A program made the translations under genes and the position numbers. The notes under the pieces were generated by a model. The model was given only the letters and a program-made list of their open reading frames with translations. It was not told where the DNA came from and made no database searches. From IMG/VR virus record IMGVR_UViG_2565956720_000008: a stretch of DNA of 4,690 nucleotides. One strand, given 5' to 3'. Source of the DNA: a virus (Duplodnaviria > Heunggongvirae > Uroviricota > Caudoviricetes). Below are positions 1 through 4,690 of this stretch, one piece after another (within the stretch, counting starts at the first letter, position 1; each line of letters begins with the position of its first letter).

Positions 1-28
1 TCTGGATATCTTAAGAAACTGACAGGCC

Positions 29-307
29 TCATCGAGTGTGAGGCTGTATGATTCCATGGTTACCTCTGCTTTTTGAACGCATGTCACGTAACTTCTTAAT
101 GTGTTCTGCCGTTTCGATCTCTTCTGCTATCCGATCTGCATCAGCTTTATTCACAGGTTCAAAGTCATGATTAAAGCGGAACATGCTGGCGATACATGTT
201 CTGCCTTTTCGGATGTAGTGAACTTTGTTGTGGGTAGAACGCAGGATTTTGCAGGGAGTGCCGTGGTGGTCGACGTACCAGGTGTTAGGCAAAATGATTC
301 TGAACAT
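29..307 (-). CDS. hypothetical small phage protein (92 aa) with a His/Cys-containing N-terminal half
   Basis: Minus-strand ORF with ATG at 307 preceded by a GAGGTG Shine-Dalgarno 5 nt upstream (minus strand reads GAGGTGTAAAAATG). Protein-like composition; the overlapping plus-strand ORF 101..334 looks like a shadow frame. No family recognised by eye. Confidence 0.55.
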   Translation of the reverse strand: MFRIILPNTWYVDHHGTPCKILRSTHNKVHYIRKGRTCIASMFRFNHDFEPVNKADADRIAEEIETAEHIKKLRDMRSKSRGNHGIIQPHTR

Positions 308-354
308 TTTTACACCTCAGTTGGACGATGTTGAAATTTGCTCCTTTGAGGTCA

Positions 355-573
355 TCACAATCCCCATTGTTTGTTCTTAAGTTCGATCTCCTCCTGGCAA
401 CTTGCACAAGTCCGACAACCCTGAACAGCCAGGCGTCTTCGCTCATCTATCGGATCGCCACATTCACAACAATGAGTTGCGGATACAGTCTGGTAGTTCA
501 GACGACGCATTTTTATTGCTGTATTGCGCTGTAATTCTTCGATTTCTGATGCTGAATCAATGATGTCTGCCAT
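355..573 (-). CDS. TraR/DksA-family C4-type zinc-finger protein (72 aa), phage-encoded
   Basis: Translation contains C-x2-C-x17-C-x2-C-Q (CCECGDPIDERRRLAVQGCRTCASCQ), matching the TraR/DksA/YbiI zinc-finger signature (compare the YbiI-type motif CEECG.PIP.ARR...C..CQ as I recall it). Size is typical of phage TraR homologues. Start-site RBS is weak (GGGA about 10 nt upstream). Confidence 0.8.
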   Translation of the reverse strand: MADIIDSASEIEELQRNTAIKMRRLNYQTVSATHCCECGDPIDERRRLAVQGCRTCASCQEEIELKNKQWGL

Positions 574-620
574 CTTTCATTAATCCCTGAATTGTTGGTT
601 AATACGCTTGAGGGTAAATG

Positions 621-649
621 CGAATAATAAAAAAGGAGCCTGTAGCTCC
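621..649 (-). terminator. candidate rho-independent terminator for the upstream minus-strand gene pair
   Basis: Inverted repeat GGAGC (635-639) / GCTCC (645-649) with a 5-nt loop. On the minus-strand transcript the hairpin is immediately followed by UUUUUUAUUAUU (plus-strand A-run 621-634). It lies just after the stop of the 672..953 ORF. Stem is short (5 bp), so moderate confidence only. Confidence 0.4.
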
Positions 650-671
650 CTGATGATTTTGCTTTTCATGT

Positions 672-953
672 TCACCGTTCCTTAAAGACGCCGTTCAACA
701 TGCCGATCGCCAGGCTTAAATGAGTCGGTGTGAATCCCATCAGCGTTACCGTTTCTCGGTGCTTCTTTAGTACGCTACGGCAAATGTCATCGACGTTTTT
801 ATCCGGAAACTGCTGTCTAGCTTTTTTGATTTCAGAATTAGCCTGACGGGCAATGCTGCGAAGGGCGTTTTCTTGCTGAGGTGTCACTGAACAAGCCCCA
901 TGTCGGCAAGCATAAGCACACATAATATGAAGCCCGCTGCCAGAAATATGCAT
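672..953 (-). CDS. hypothetical basic small protein (93 aa, or 83 aa from the alternative ATG at 923) with an N-terminal Cys cluster
   Basis: Minus-strand ORF whose start lies 10 nt after the stop of the 964..1155 ORF, suggesting an operon. C-terminal two-thirds looks protein-like (K/R-rich). No clear Shine-Dalgarno before either candidate ATG, so the start is uncertain. Family not recognised. Confidence 0.5.
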   Translation of the reverse strand: MHISGSGLHIMCAYACRHGACSVTPQQENALRSIARQANSEIKKARQQFPDKNVDDICRSVLKKHRETVTLMGFTPTHLSLAIGMLNGVFKER

Positions 954-963
954 TCAGTGGTTG

Positions 964-1155
964 TCATACCTGGTCTCTCTCATCTGCTTCTGCTTTCGCC
1001 ACCATCATTTCCAGCTTTTGTGAAAGGGATGCGGCTAACGTATGAAATTCTTCGTCTGTTTCTACTGGTATTGGCACAAACCTGACTCCAATTTGAGCGA
1101 GGCTATGTGCCATCTCGATACACGTTCTTAACTCAACAGGAGATGCTTTGTGCAT
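964..1155 (-). CDS. hypothetical acidic small protein (63 aa)
   Basis: Minus-strand ORF with ATG at 1155 and a G-rich stretch (ACGGGGGG) 5-9 nt upstream. Acidic, amphipathic-looking sequence. First gene of a leftward two-gene unit that ends at the hairpin near 621-649. Family not recognised by eye. Confidence 0.5.
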   Translation of the reverse strand: MHKASPVELRTCIEMAHSLAQIGVRFVPIPVETDEEFHTLAASLSQKLEMMVAKAEADERDQV

Positions 1156-1348
1156 ACAGCCCCCCGTTTATTATTTATCTCCTCAGCCAGTCGCTGTGCT
1201 TTCAGGGGATTTCGGATAACAGGAAGGCCGGGAAATACCCAGCCTCGCTTTGTAACGGAGTAGACGAAAGTGATCGCGCCTACTCGGGGAAAACATCCTT
1301 TCCTGCGATACGGAGAAGAGTATCCGGGAGCGGTTTTCTGTTTACCAG

Positions 1349-1798
1349 GTGGCGGGGCAGCGTGCCGGAAACGACGATGATTTCGGTGAGGCCACCACCA
1401 CCGCGCTGCGGGCCCGCACAGAGGACGCATTTATTGCCCGTTACCGTCCGATGTATATCAGGCAGACAGGGCAGGCTACGGGGGCTGGCTGTATTGCCCG
1501 TGCTGACTTTGAAGCCCGGCAACGGGCGGCGCGGACGGATGAAACCACCTATGTGGTGCAGGGCTGGCGACAGGGTAACGGTACGCTGTGGCAGCCCAAC
1601 CAGCGGGTGATTGTCTTTGATCCGGTCTGTGGTTTCGACAATACCGAACTGCTTGTTTCGGAAGTCACGTTTACTCAGGACCAGAACGGCACCCTGACGG
1701 AAATCCGTGTCGGCCCGCCTGATGCTTATCTGCCTGAACCCGAAGCCCCCGGCGCGCGGAAAAAGAAAAAAGCCAGAGTACAGGAGGACCCGTTCTGA
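1349..1798 (+). CDS. 5'-truncated remnant of a Mu gp44 / P2 gpD-like tail (baseplate hub) protein; about 150 C-terminal residues, likely pseudogene
   Basis: Sits immediately upstream of the gp45-like gene, with its stop TGA (1796-1798) overlapping that gene's ATG, the position gp44/P holds in the Mu order. The frame is open only back to an in-frame TGA at 1271-1273, with no ATG and only a GTG at 1349. Full-length gpD/gp44 proteins are roughly 380 aa, so the N-terminal part is missing. Family assignment is by position and general C-terminal character, not by alignment. Confidence 0.55.
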   Translation: MAGQRAGNDDDFGEATTTALRARTEDAFIARYRPMYIRQTGQATGAGCIARADFEARQRAARTDETTYVVQGWRQGNGTLWQPNQRVIVFDPVCGFDNTELLVSEVTFTQDQNGTLTEIRVGPPDAYLPEPEAPGARKKKKARVQEDPF

Positions 1799-2346
1799 TG
1801 AGGACGATTGAAGCCATGCAGCGACAACTCCTCGGCCTGATTGGGCGGGCCGTGGTGAAAAGCATCAGTGCCGCCACGAAATGTCAGACCGTGGATGTGT
1901 CCCTGATTGCCGGTGAACCCAAAGCCGGGGTTGAACATCTTGAACCCTACGGTTTTACCGCAAGGGCAAACAGCGGTGCGGAAGCGGTGGTGTTGTTTCC
2001 GGATGGCGACCGTTCTCATGCGGTGGTTGTTACGGTGTCGGACCGTCGCTACCGCCTGAAAGGGCTGCAAACGGGGGAGGTGGCTGTCTATGACGATCAG
2101 GGGCAGTCCGTGACGCTGACCCGGGAGGGGATCGTGGTGGACGGTGCAGGTAAAACGATCACGTTTCGCAATGCGCCCAGAGCACGTTTTGAAATGGACC
2201 TGGAAGTGACCGGACAGGTGAAAGACCTGTGCGACTCCGGCGGCACCACCATGTCAGCGATGCGGCTTGCCTATAACGGGCATCGTCACAGAGAGAACGG
2301 TCAGGGCAGTAACACCGACAAACCTGATAAAGCGATGGAGGCATGA
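1798..2346 (+). CDS. baseplate assembly protein V-like / Mu gp45-like spike protein (182 aa)
   Basis: ATG at 1798 with GGAGG 10 nt upstream. Size and sequence character are typical of gpV/gp45 baseplate spike proteins. Position in the conserved order gp44-gp45-gp46-gp47-gp48-fibre. Confidence 0.8.
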   Translation: MRTIEAMQRQLLGLIGRAVVKSISAATKCQTVDVSLIAGEPKAGVEHLEPYGFTARANSGAEAVVLFPDGDRSHAVVVTVSDRRYRLKGLQTGEVAVYDDQGQSVTLTREGIVVDGAGKTITFRNAPRARFEMDLEVTGQVKDLCDSGGTTMSAMRLAYNGHRHRENGQGSNTDKPDKAMEA

Positions 2347-2771
2347 TGGAACTGTGGCTGACGGTGAACGGTAAACGCACCTGCGCCAGCGCACCGCTGG
2401 ATCCGCTGACCCGCGCCGTGGTGATTTCCCTGTTCACCTGGCGGCGGGCGGAGCCTGATGACAATGCCGACGTCCCGATGGGATGGTGGGGGGATACCTG
2501 GCCTGCGGTACAGAATGACCGTTACGGCTCCCGGCTGTGGCTGCTTCAGCGCAGCAAACTGACCAATCAGCTGGTGCTGACGGTAAGGGGGTATATCCGC
2601 GAATGCCTGCAATGGATGATTGATGACGGCGTGGTGTCCCGTATTGATCTGGATATCCGCCGCACCGGGATTAATGAACTGGGTAACAGTATCACTCTCT
2701 GGCGTCGTGACGGACCGGTAATGATTTCTTTTGATGATCTGTGGAGTGCGATAACGCATGGCGGACAGTGA
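2343..2771 (+). CDS. phage GP46-family baseplate protein (Mu gp46-like), about 141 aa
   Basis: Two tandem ATGs at 2343 and 2346. GGAGG at 2337-2341 favours the ATG at 2346, which overlaps the upstream stop as TGATG. Size and position match Mu gp46. Ends 14 nt inside the next gene. Confidence 0.75.
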   Translation: MMELWLTVNGKRTCASAPLDPLTRAVVISLFTWRRAEPDDNADVPMGWWGDTWPAVQNDRYGSRLWLLQRSKLTNQLVLTVRGYIRECLQWMIDDGVVSRIDLDIRRTGINELGNSITLWRRDGPVMISFDDLWSAITHGGQ

Positions 2772-3816
2772 ATTTCAGCGCCCGACGCTGGCAGAAAATA
2801 TCAGTATGCTCCGTAACGATTTATTCGCCAGGCTGGACGTCAGCGACACGCTCCGGCGCATGGATGAAGACGTGCGGGCAAAGGTGTATGCGGCGGCGCT
2901 GCATACGGTTTACGGGTACATCGATTATCTGGCAATGAACATGCTGCCTGACCTGTGCGATGAGTCCTGGCTGGCGCGACATGCTGCGATGAAACGGTGT
3001 CCGCGCAAGGGGGCCACGGCTGCCAGCGGGTATATGCGCTGGGAAGGTGTCAGCGATGGCCTGAAGGTGACCGCCGGGAGTGTTATTCAGCGCGATGACC
3101 TGGTTCAGTATACTGCAACTGCCGATGCAACCAGCTCCGGTGGTGTCCTGCGCGTGCCGATCGCCTGCTCAAATGCAGGCGCGGTCGGTAACGCTGACGA
3201 CGGTACGGCATTAATCCTGGTCACGCCGGTGAATGGTCTGCCGTCTTCCGGTGTGGCTGACACCCTGACAGGCGGATTTGATACTGAAGAGCTGGAAACG
3301 TGGCGCGCCCGCGTCATTGAGCGGTATTACTGGACGCCGCAGGGCGGGGCTGACGGGGACTATGTCGTCTGGGCTAAAGAAGTGCCCGGCATTACCCGCG
3401 CATGGACATACCGTCACTGGATGGGAACGGGAACTGTCGGTGTGATGATTGCCAGCAGTGACCTGATTAATCCCATTCCGGAAGAATCAACGGAAACGGC
3501 GGCAAGACAACATATCGAGCCACTGGCCCCGGTGGCAGGCTCTGATTTGTATGTGTTCAGGCCGGTGGCACATACGGTGGATTTTCATATCCGCGTGACG
3601 CCGGATACACCAGAAATACGGGCTGCCATCACCGCGGAGTTGCGTTCGTTCCTGCTGCGTGATGGTTATCCGCAGGGAGAACTGAAGGTATCGCGTATCA
3701 GTGAGGCGATTTCCGGTGCGAACGGGGAATACAGCCATCAGTTGCTTGCACCGGCAGACAATATCTCCATTGCAAAAAATGAACTGGCGGTTCTGGGGAC
3801 GATTTCATGGACGTGA
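2758..3816 (+). CDS. baseplate J-like protein (Mu gp47 / P2 gpJ family), 352 aa
   Basis: Long ORF with uniform coding character and high GC. Length and position between the gp46-like and gp48-like genes match the baseplate J wedge protein. Start overlaps the upstream gene and stop overlaps the downstream gene (translational coupling). Confidence 0.85.
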
Positions 3817-4391
3817 CAAACGATGATTACATCCGTCTGTTGTCGGCACTGTTGCCCCCCGGTCCGGCGTGGTCAGCCAGCGATCCGGCGATTGCCGGTG
3901 CGGCACCGTCATTAACCCGCGTTCATCAGCGTGCGGATGCCCTGATGCGGGAGCTGGATCCGCGCACCACCACTGAACTGATAAACCGCTGGGAGCGTCT
4001 GTGCGGTCTGCCGGATGAATGTATTCCGGCAGGGACGCAGACCCTTCGCCAGCGTCAGCAACGGCTGGATGCGAAGGTTAACCTGGCGGGCGGCATCAAC
4101 GAGAATTTTTATCTTGCACAGCTTGCTGCCCTGGGCAGACCAGACGCTACCATCACGCGATACGACAAAAGCACGTTCACCTGCTCATCGGCCTGTACTG
4201 ACGCGGTGAATGCGCCGGAATGGCGGTATTACTGGCAGGTCAACATGCCAGCCGCCACAAACACCACCTGGATGACATGTGGCGATCCCTGTGATTCCGC
4301 GCTGCGTATCTGGGGCGACACCGTTGTCGAGTGTGTGCTTAACAAACTCTGCCCGTCGCATACCTACGTAATTTTTAAATATCCGGAGTAA
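3807..4391 (+). CDS. ymfQ: phage tail protein, Mu gp48 / P2 gpI-like, DUF2313 (YmfQ-like), 194 aa
   Basis: 194-aa ORF directly between the J-like gene and the tail-fibre gene. Length and context match e14 YmfQ-type proteins. The symbol is assigned by homology and context from memory and is not verified by alignment. Confidence 0.8.
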
Positions 4392-4395
4392 TCCA

Positions 4396-4690
4396 TGCAT
4401 CGTATAGACACGAAAACCGCGCAGAAGGATAAGTTCGGCGCGGGTAAGAACGGTTTTACCCGTGGTAACCCCCAGACCGGCACACCTGCCACCGATCTGG
4501 ATGATGACTACTTTGATATGTTGCAGGAAGAACTCTGCAGCGTGGTGGAGGCATCCGGTGCCAGCCTGGAGAAGGAGAGGCACGACCAGCTGCTTACTGC
4601 GCTTCGTGCGCTGCTGTTAAGCCGCAAGAATCCGTTTGGTGATATCAAATCGGATGGCACGGTGAAAACGGCTCTCGAAAACCTTGGTTT
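4396..4690 (+). CDS. side tail fibre protein, N-terminal constant (baseplate-attachment) region; partial, continues past the window end
   Basis: ATG at 4396 with GGAG 6 nt upstream. Translation begins [47 protein letters not shown]..., the conserved N-terminus of Mu S / P2 H / e14 Stf-type fibres. Not in the supplied ORF track because it has no stop inside the window. Confidence 0.85.
4672..4690 (+). other. putative DNA-invertase (Hin/Gin/Cin/Pin family) crossover site, left half plus core and start of right half; truncated by the window end
   Basis: Sequence CTCTCGAAAACC-TT-GGTTT matches the left 12-bp half-site of hixL-type sites (TTCTTGAAAACC, 10 of 12 identical) followed by a 2-bp core and the GGTTT start of the inverted right half-site; the reference site is quoted from memory. 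It lies about 92 codons into the tail-fibre gene, where the constant/variable junction of invertible fibre segments is expected. Confidence 0.45.

Follow-up and report, generated by a model that had tools for sequence, protein, structure and literature searches.

An intact TraR-family ortholog of lambda Orf73 in a defective chimeric prophage remnant of Escherichia coli

The gene at positions 355..573 on the minus strand of the window, by which we mean the whole stretch of 4,690 nucleotides that was analyzed, encodes a member of the DksA/TraR superfamily and belongs to the lambda Orf73 orthologous group within the TraR family. With high confidence, we label its product [quoted passage not shown]. 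We consider it very probable that this short DksA-like protein of the TraR family is the ortholog of lambda Orf73 and that its mechanism follows from that orthology. A preliminary description of this DNA had proposed a candidate secondary-channel regulator of RNA polymerase; the function is supported by way of lambda Orf73, while the word "candidate" gives way, since the protein is the ortholog of one that has been characterized. Nothing in 355..573 departs from published knowledge, and the identification, though correct, is ordinary and already known.

The coding sequence and its ribosome-binding region are placed as follows.

355..573, minus strand: coding sequence of the TraR family (lambda Orf73 ortholog), from the open reading frame list, Pfam, PHROG, RefSeq and dN/dS
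584..588, minus strand: weak Shine-Dalgarno-like AGGGA, 10 nt 5' of the ATG and identical in lambda

The frame runs from an ATG at 573..571 to a TGA at 357..355 on the minus strand and specifies 72 amino acids (MADIIDSASEIEELQRNTAIKMRRLNYQTVSATHCCECGDPIDERRRLAVQGCRTCASCQEEIELKNKQWGL). This product is identical to RefSeq WP_000763385.1, "TraR/DksA family transcriptional regulator", whose CDS has the same coordinates. The window and lambda copies of orf73 differ at 24 nucleotides, 16 of them at third codon positions, with a dN/dS of 0.19; this third-position bias, together with the low ratio, indicates purifying selection on the frame. Three overlapping open reading frames (328..534 and 402..563 on the plus strand, 285..446 on the minus strand) were rejected as the real gene, given that none has a PHROG match and that the substitution pattern fits the minus-strand frame at 355..573. 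An Rfam search of the whole window returned no match at the gathering score. For lambda Orf73 itself, translation has ribosome profiling evidence, as cited in PMC9239242.

Profile searches place the protein in the family. The preliminary description had looked to a significant profile match to TraR/DksA, and such matches were found: Pfam PF01258 (zf-dskA_traR), with a score of 37.3 bits, exceeds its gathering threshold of 24.9 (E = 2.8e-09), residues 33-64 covering profile positions 4-35 of 36, and PHROG 54, annotated as "DksA-like zinc-finger protein", aligns with residues 1-70 (E = 3.6e-26). The NCBIfam profile TIGR02419 (phage/conjugal plasmid C4 zinc finger, TraR family) aligns along its full length, with residues 3-64 on positions 1-64 of 64 (E = 2e-14), and scores 53.9 bits, under its cut-off of 59.7; the score narrowly misses a curated threshold, and the similarity is still present. 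As a label, the F TraR equivalog NF010268 was rejected at 25.8 bits against a 108-bit cut-off, which marks the protein as a homolog of TraR and not TraR itself. Homologs of orf73 in lambdoid phages carry annotations such as "DksA-like zinc-finger protein", "TraR/YbiI family protein" and "dksA/traR C4-type zinc finger".

The functional hallmarks of the family can be located residue by residue in the window protein.

550..567, minus strand: codons 3-8, D3-I-I-D6-S-A8 (DxxDxA), read from the sequence and aligning with D3/D6/A8 of TraR
394..471, minus strand: codons 35-60, C4 zinc finger, C35-x2-C38-x17-C56-x2-C59-Q60
433..438, minus strand: codons 46-47, Arg-Arg pair aligning with TraR R48 (beta' rim helices) and R49 (beta'Si3)
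367..405, minus strand: codons 57-69, predicted C-terminal helix from the AlphaFold2 model

Conservation was read from an alignment of 96 sequences, in which 93 full-length homologs were joined by F TraR, lambda Orf73 and the window protein. Within the N-terminal motif, D3 is kept in 94%, D6 in 98% and A8 in 98% of the sequences, the TraR equivalents being D3, D6 and A8. The zinc ligands C35 (100%), C38 (98%), C56 (96%) and C59 (93%) correspond to C37/C40/C58/C61 of TraR, and the glutamine that follows the last cysteine, Q60, is conserved at 95% (TraR Q62). The finger thus has the C-x2-C-x17-C-x2-C-Q spacing that had been read earlier in a 72-aa protein, and its cysteines, whose conservation in homologs the preliminary description had made a point of checking, are conserved. 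The arginine pair is similarly well kept, with R46 at 96% (TraR R48) and R47 at 98% (TraR R49); R47 belongs to an "ExxRL" motif, E44-x-x-R47-L48, that is the same as in lambda Orf73. Two extra cysteines in the finger, C36 and C53, correspond to TraR positions 38 and 55, and their conservation differs: C53, a position at which TraR has Val, is kept in 92% of the clade against only 34% for C36 in the same alignment. A second, curated alignment of 58 sequences gives the same conservation picture, each of the four ligand cysteines being either invariant or kept in at least 90% of the sequences.

AlphaFold2, run on the curated 58-sequence alignment, predicts an N-terminal helix (residues 5-23) and a C-terminal one (residues 57-69) with a zinc knuckle between them. 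In agreement with the earlier statement that the long coiled coil of DksA is absent, a single predicted N-terminal helix takes its place. Confidence in the model is moderate (mean pLDDT 69, pTM 0.36), and the C-terminal helix falls in its two best-scoring 10-residue blocks; the mean pLDDT is 84 over residues 61-70 and 74 over residues 71-72. The top Foldseek neighbor in the PDB is 6n57_M, TraR on RNA polymerase, at a probability of 0.99 and E = 5.3e-03 for this pLDDT-69 model; no match to the PDB was found at E <= 1e-03. Superposed on 6n57_M, the model has a TM-score of 0.45 and an rmsd of 7.4 A, so that the topology agrees while the helix orientations differ, and published models of free and bound lambda Orf73 likewise differ in helix orientation (PMC8614690). 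The later neighbors are, in order, YbiI (2kgo), TraR (5w1s_M), and then DksA2 and DksA, the DksA match being marginal (7khi_M, E = 0.5). Because the model is of moderate confidence and the Foldseek scores are weak, we treat the fold search as supporting and not decisive.

The comparison with two relatives clarifies where the protein sits. F TraR, lambda Orf73 and P2 Orf82 are among the members of the TraR family, short secondary-channel factors of about 70-75 aa that do not depend on ppGpp. F-plasmid TraR, whose structures include 5W1S and complexes with E. coli RNA polymerase (6N57/6N58, 6PSQ-6PSV), has the architecture of helix, zinc knuckle and helix that the model predicts for the window protein, almost the same size (73 aa against 72 aa), and the same aligned D3/D6/A8, four cysteines, arginine pair and glutamine after the last cysteine. 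The identity between the two proteins is only about 30%, however, and they differ in that TraR has four cysteines where the window protein has six, and ExxRK where the window protein has ExxRL. TraR is an activator of amino-acid and tra promoters, whereas with lambda Orf73 any activation at the promoters tested was weak, and the TraR gene lies in a conjugative transfer operon instead of a phage early operon. E. coli DksA has the same Pfam zinc-finger domain and an acidic tip that also carries two aspartates; DksA and lambda Orf73 bind RNA polymerase at one and the same site, and each of them inhibits rrnB P1. DksA differs in being about twice as long, in carrying its aspartates on a coiled-coil tip and in needing ppGpp for full activity, while TraR and Orf73 have a single N-terminal helix and are independent of ppGpp.

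The closest system is lambda Orf73. The two proteins are identical at 62 of 71 aligned positions (87%) and positive at 67 of 71, without gaps (E = 3e-47). In lambda the gene is a 73-codon open reading frame (complement 30392..30613) in the unannotated gap between ea22 and orf61 of NC_001416. Both proteins have the DxxDxA motif, the C4 finger, C36 and C53, the arginine pair and ExxRL. Both genes occupy the same position on the leftward strand, downstream of orf60a-orf63-orf61, and are preceded by an identical intergenic element (the terminator with the predicted promoter "p1") and an identical ribosome-binding region. The window protein is one residue shorter (72 aa against 73 aa) and differs from lambda Orf73 by the substitutions H27Y, A29T, I30V, V49A, D62E, L63I, I66K, S67N and R70W, and it ends in L where lambda Orf73 has SK; four of these changes (I66K, S67N, R70W and SK>L) fall in or just after the C-terminal helix. 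The neighborhoods also differ: the gene downstream is a DUF4222 gene in the window and ea22 in lambda, and the window operon is truncated upstream and lacks the pL and N control that lambda has.

The activities of lambda Orf73 have been described by Gopalkrishnan et al. (mBio 2022, PMC9239242). The purified protein occupies the DksA/TraR site of RNA polymerase, in competition with DksA. It inhibits rRNA and ribosomal-protein promoters; for instance, the IC50 on rrnB P1 is about 50 nM without ppGpp, the same as for TraR, and rpsT P2 is also inhibited without ppGpp. Variants D3N and D6N are much poorer inhibitors of rrnB P1. When lambda Orf73 is driven from pL, pre-rRNA synthesis falls to 29% and growth is slower, and phage yield is 3-4 fold higher with wild-type orf73 than with a deletion or the D3A/D6A mutant. 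Activation was weak, if any, at the three host promoters tested, and the two extra cysteines are offered as a possible explanation (all PMC9239242). Donaldson (PMC8614690) modeled Orf73 on TraR in RNA polymerase, listed the same hallmarks and observed that ExxRL in lambda Orf73 replaces the ExxRK of TraR. The phenotype of the phage is disputed: Zdrojewska 2019 reportedly describes orf73 as pro-lysogenic with a lower yield, against the higher yield of the mBio 2022 study.

Secondary-channel binding and inhibition of rrnB P1 without ppGpp have also been demonstrated for other homologs, and the need for DxxDxA for TraR as well. From lambda Orf73, 87% identical, we infer RNA polymerase binding and promoter effects for the window protein. 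By orthology, it would not bind DNA and would instead dock in the secondary channel of RNA polymerase. The N-terminal helix would carry D3-x-x-D6-x-A8 towards the active-site region of the polymerase, where the motif would act as the acidic tip that reaches this region in TraR and Orf73. The zinc-knuckle domain is expected to dock on the beta' rim helices and beta'Si3 through R46 and R47, and the C-terminal helix, judged from its TraR counterpart, would contact betaSi1. The altered conformation of the polymerase would then inhibit kinetically unstable rRNA and ribosomal-protein promoters independently of ppGpp. In a functional lambdoid phage, orf73 would be transcribed early from pL, host growth would slow and phage yield would rise. 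The preliminary description had noted that TraR homologs bind RNA polymerase and reprogram host transcription; binding and inhibition agree with what is reported for lambda Orf73, whereas activation is weak and the effect is mainly a shutdown of ribosome synthesis.

Two other readings concern what the protein is and what it is mainly for. The zinc ribbon might be all that it has in common with TraR, in which case it would be a paralog resembling YbiI or another member of the DksA family, or else a zinc-finger protein that binds specific DNA sequences. E. coli YbiI (2KGO) carries the same C4 zinc finger and gives the strongest sequence match among solved structures (2kgo, 1.2e-05), slightly ahead of TraR (7.7e-05), and the YbiI profile NF008243 scores 42.8 bits. 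That score is far under the 96-bit cut-off, however, and the YbiI match is confined to the finger (residues 31-67), so membership in the YbiI type was rejected, whereas the alignment with TraR extends from one end to the other (residues 1-69 against 1-71) and includes DxxDxA. YbiI is also longer and chromosomal, with a 2kgo chain of 108 aa and 88 positions in NF008243; the length of the window protein, its N-terminal motif, its arginine pair and its synteny with lambda orf73 favor the TraR/Orf73 group. As for binding to DNA, proteins of the TraR family act without it (PMC9239242), and we regard this whole reading as extremely improbable. A role mainly in the lysis-lysogeny decision or in blocking the initiation of host replication ("bin"), instead of ribosome shutdown, is unlikely, although less so. 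Earlier work is reported to have tied orf73, together with ea22, ea8.5 and orf55, to inhibition of replication initiation, deletion studies are reported to have called the gene pro-lysogenic, and at high concentration lambda Orf73 inhibits dnaA P2 and P1 in vitro (IC50 about 0.42 and 1.7 uM; PMC9239242). With Orf73 expressed from a single-copy prophage, however, dnaA mRNA fell weakly if at all, compared with a more than 3-fold fall in pre-rRNA (PMC9239242), and an effect on replication can be an indirect result of the same RNA polymerase-binding mechanism. The complete set of four "bin" genes is moreover not found in the window, because ea22 is replaced by the DUF4222 gene and lambda ea8.5 and orf55 have no counterpart. 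Ribosome shutdown through the secondary channel remains our preferred account of what the protein would do.

The genomic setting shows that the window is a defective chimeric prophage remnant at a tRNA-Thr gene and not a working phage. It is 99.9% identical to positions 1209755..1214444 of the E. coli B-JRPT-4119 chromosome, and the locus starts beside the tRNA-Thr downstream of proA. The gene order begins with an integrase, an xis-like HTH gene, the DUF4222 gene, the TraR-like gene, orf61, orf63 and a remnant of orf60a. It continues with a 5'-truncated Mu-type baseplate gene (gpP family), gp45-, gp46-, gp47(J)- and gp48(YmfQ)-like genes, tail-fibre genes and pinE. The elements upstream of orf73 are listed below.

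672..953, minus strand: Orf61 in its long form (93 aa), upstream neighbor, PHROG 303, E = 4.2e-42 over residues 1-93
964..1155, minus strand: Orf63 (DUF1382), upstream neighbor, PF07131 at E = 7.9e-32, with lambda orf63 nearly identical
1128..1281, minus strand: remnant of orf60a (DUF1317), C-terminal ~50 codons only, marking the point at which the lambdoid leftward operon breaks off
1279..1287: recombination joint at which the lambdoid exo-xis block meets the Mu-like baseplate gene, with microhomology CTAC.CGG, from a three-way alignment

The block at 1..1287 is 96-98% identical to many lambdoid phages, and the order orf60a-orf63-orf61-orf73 is the same in the window, lambda and phage 2G7b. 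Relative to the long Orf61 of the window, lambda orf61 carries a frameshift. At the joint, phage matches stop at 1287 and e14-like baseplate matches begin at 1281; PHROG 1998 matches the orf60a remnant only at residues 49-94 of a mechanical 100-aa open reading frame, and RefSeq flags the baseplate CDS as "missing N-terminus". The whole arrangement occurs in only 2 of 5426 complete E. coli genomes, while DNA similar to 340..600 is found in 3312 of the 5426 (about 61%). The remnant lacks exo, bet, gam, kil, cIII, N, nutL and pL, and the repressor as well. Because the operon is cut inside orf60a and its upstream part is lost, everything that drives orf73 in lambda is gone. The gene order is that of the lambda leftward operon, but the leftward block in which the preliminary description suggested a host-modulating accessory function is here the decapitated end of an operon, left in a defective chimeric prophage that has no pL, N or nutL, so that neither "phage-encoded" nor "expressed" can be taken for granted for this copy.

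Expression of the window copy of orf73 is accordingly uncertain. The signals that bear on it lie in the gap between orf61 and orf73.

623..660, minus strand: conserved intergenic element, hairpin at 651..633 followed by TTTTTTATTATT, the "t2" of Bloch et al. 2014

A terminator scan finds a terminator-like hairpin with a T-run at 50-88 nt upstream of the ATG; the element folds as RNA at -14.7 kcal/mol (z = -3.05) and is identical base for base in the window, lambda and phage 2G7b. In this gap, Bloch et al. 2014 (PMC4195576) predicted the terminator "t2" and, with BPROM, an overlapping promoter, "p1". In the window, the p1 hexamers are a -35 of TCATCA at 656..651, which matches the consensus at 3 of 6 positions, and a poor -10, TTTTATTAT, at 632..624. 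A scan for sigma-70 consensus promoters on the minus strand of the whole 4.7-kb window, which is crude and covers one promoter type, found none. With pL, N and nutL lost, any transcription of the gene would have to come from the weak predicted p1.

Two accounts of the gene in its present host follow from these signals. It may be an intact but silent relic, carried along by an illegitimate recombination that removed pL, N and nutL together with all else that lay upstream of orf60a; it would then have no function in this host and merely not yet have decayed. We give this somewhat less than an even chance. A locus without repressor, pL or N speaks for it, as do the joint at 1279-1287, the rarity of the whole arrangement, the absence of a sigma-70-like promoter from the minus strand of the 4.7 kb and the terminator directly upstream. 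On the other side, the open reading frame is intact, and so are all three upstream open reading frames that lie wholly inside the exo-xis block; the p1 element of Bloch et al. is unchanged, and in phage 24B expression of orf73 exceeds that of the genes upstream of it, a pattern that Bloch et al. read as hinting at a local promoter (PMC4195576). The limits of the promoter scan weigh against silence as well, and silence would bear on expression alone, leaving the identity of the protein uncontradicted. The opposite outcome, in which orf73 has been freed from pL and N, is expressed from p1 and is retained by the host as a ppGpp-independent brake on rRNA synthesis, appears to us highly unlikely. 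Under either account, the product of 355..573 is the lambda Orf73 ortholog described above.

The discovery value of the gene is small, since publications already cover the family, its structure on RNA polymerase, its mechanism and the lambda ortholog's phenotype, and annotation of the gene is routine. If the host had indeed retained orf73 under p1, strains that carry it would gain a stringent-like control of growth that lambda normally deploys only in lytic growth. What the remnant does illustrate is that genes of the TraR family survive intact in decapitated prophage fragments.

The window joins a lambdoid block to Mu-type morphogenesis genes within a single defective prophage. The C-terminal part of a lambdoid orf60a gene and a baseplate gene lacking its 5' end meet at the following positions:

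1128-1281, minus strand: lambdoid orf60a (DUF1317) remnant, C-terminal ~50 codons
1279-1287: joint between the lambdoid block and the baseplate gene, lying at a short microhomology
1280-1798, plus strand: Mu-type baseplate gene, 5'-truncated (GpP fourth domain)

This fusion is an illegitimate-recombination joint at the microhomology, which makes the element a chimeric prophage remnant. The remnant covers about 9 kb, from the integrase to a GIY-YIG gene, and occupies a tRNA-Thr site adjoining proA. Its whole arrangement was found in only two of 5426 complete E. coli genomes.

IS1 sequences occur both near and within this arrangement. On L001, the E. coli B-JRPT-4119 chromosome stretch around the window, the element lies ~0.9 kb past the last gene of the remnant, and in the second genome, FORC_082 (NZ_CP026641.1), the match to the window is in two pieces with an IS1 family transposase between them.

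L001 19113-19886: GIY-YIG gene, last of the remnant
L001 20785-21482: IS1 element

Beyond the joint, the plus strand continues with a baseplate and tail-fibre module:

1798-4391, plus strand: Mu-like baseplate genes, in order Gp45 N-terminal domain, GP46, Baseplate_J/gp47 and Gp48/YmfQ
4395-4690, plus strand: tail-fibre gene, start only (first 10 protein letters not shown)

Downstream of the window, the genome carries pinE and tail-fibre assembly genes in both orientations, which identifies the tail-fibre region as an e14-type invertible tail-fibre module.

On the lambdoid side, the genes flanking orf73 differ from those of lambda in both length and content:

29-307, minus strand: DUF4222 protein, 92 aa, function unknown (PHROG 285)
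672-953, minus strand: Orf61, 93 aa, full length (PHROG 303)

In lambda, the annotated 61-aa orf61 and the next 60-aa ORF represent one gene (3213-3525 of L002, the lambda comparison stretch), divided in two by a single added A: the A-run is eight bases long in lambda and seven in the window. An apparent truncation of lambda Orf61 relative to Stx phages had already been noted (PMC8614690). For the window, RefSeq lists only a 71-aa version of Orf61 (672-887). Downstream of orf73, the slot filled by ea22 in lambda is instead taken by the DUF4222 gene, a mosaic replacement in the exo-xis region.

The spacer between orf61 and orf73 is more conserved than the coding sequence beside it:

574-671, minus strand: orf61-orf73 spacer, with an element at 623-660, inside the aligned stretch 560-700

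When the window is aligned with lambda and phage 2G7b, the 141-base stretch that includes the spacer is 98% identical in all three, compared with about 89% identity to lambda for the adjacent orf73 coding sequence. Within the spacer lies a strong terminator-like hairpin with a T-run, corresponding to the predicted terminator t2 and overlapping the predicted promoter p1 (Bloch et al. 2014, PMC4195576). This high conservation suggests that the spacer is a putative functional regulatory element, acting as a terminator, a promoter or both.

Within Orf73 itself, two "extra" cysteines distinguish the lambda protein from TraR:

412-417: codon 53, extra cysteine C53
463-468: codon 36, extra cysteine C36

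Among the 96 aligned sequences, C53 is conserved in 92%, whereas C36 is conserved in only 34%. Given this difference, C53 may matter for function in the Orf73 clade, where it could, for instance, serve as an alternative zinc ligand or respond to redox state.
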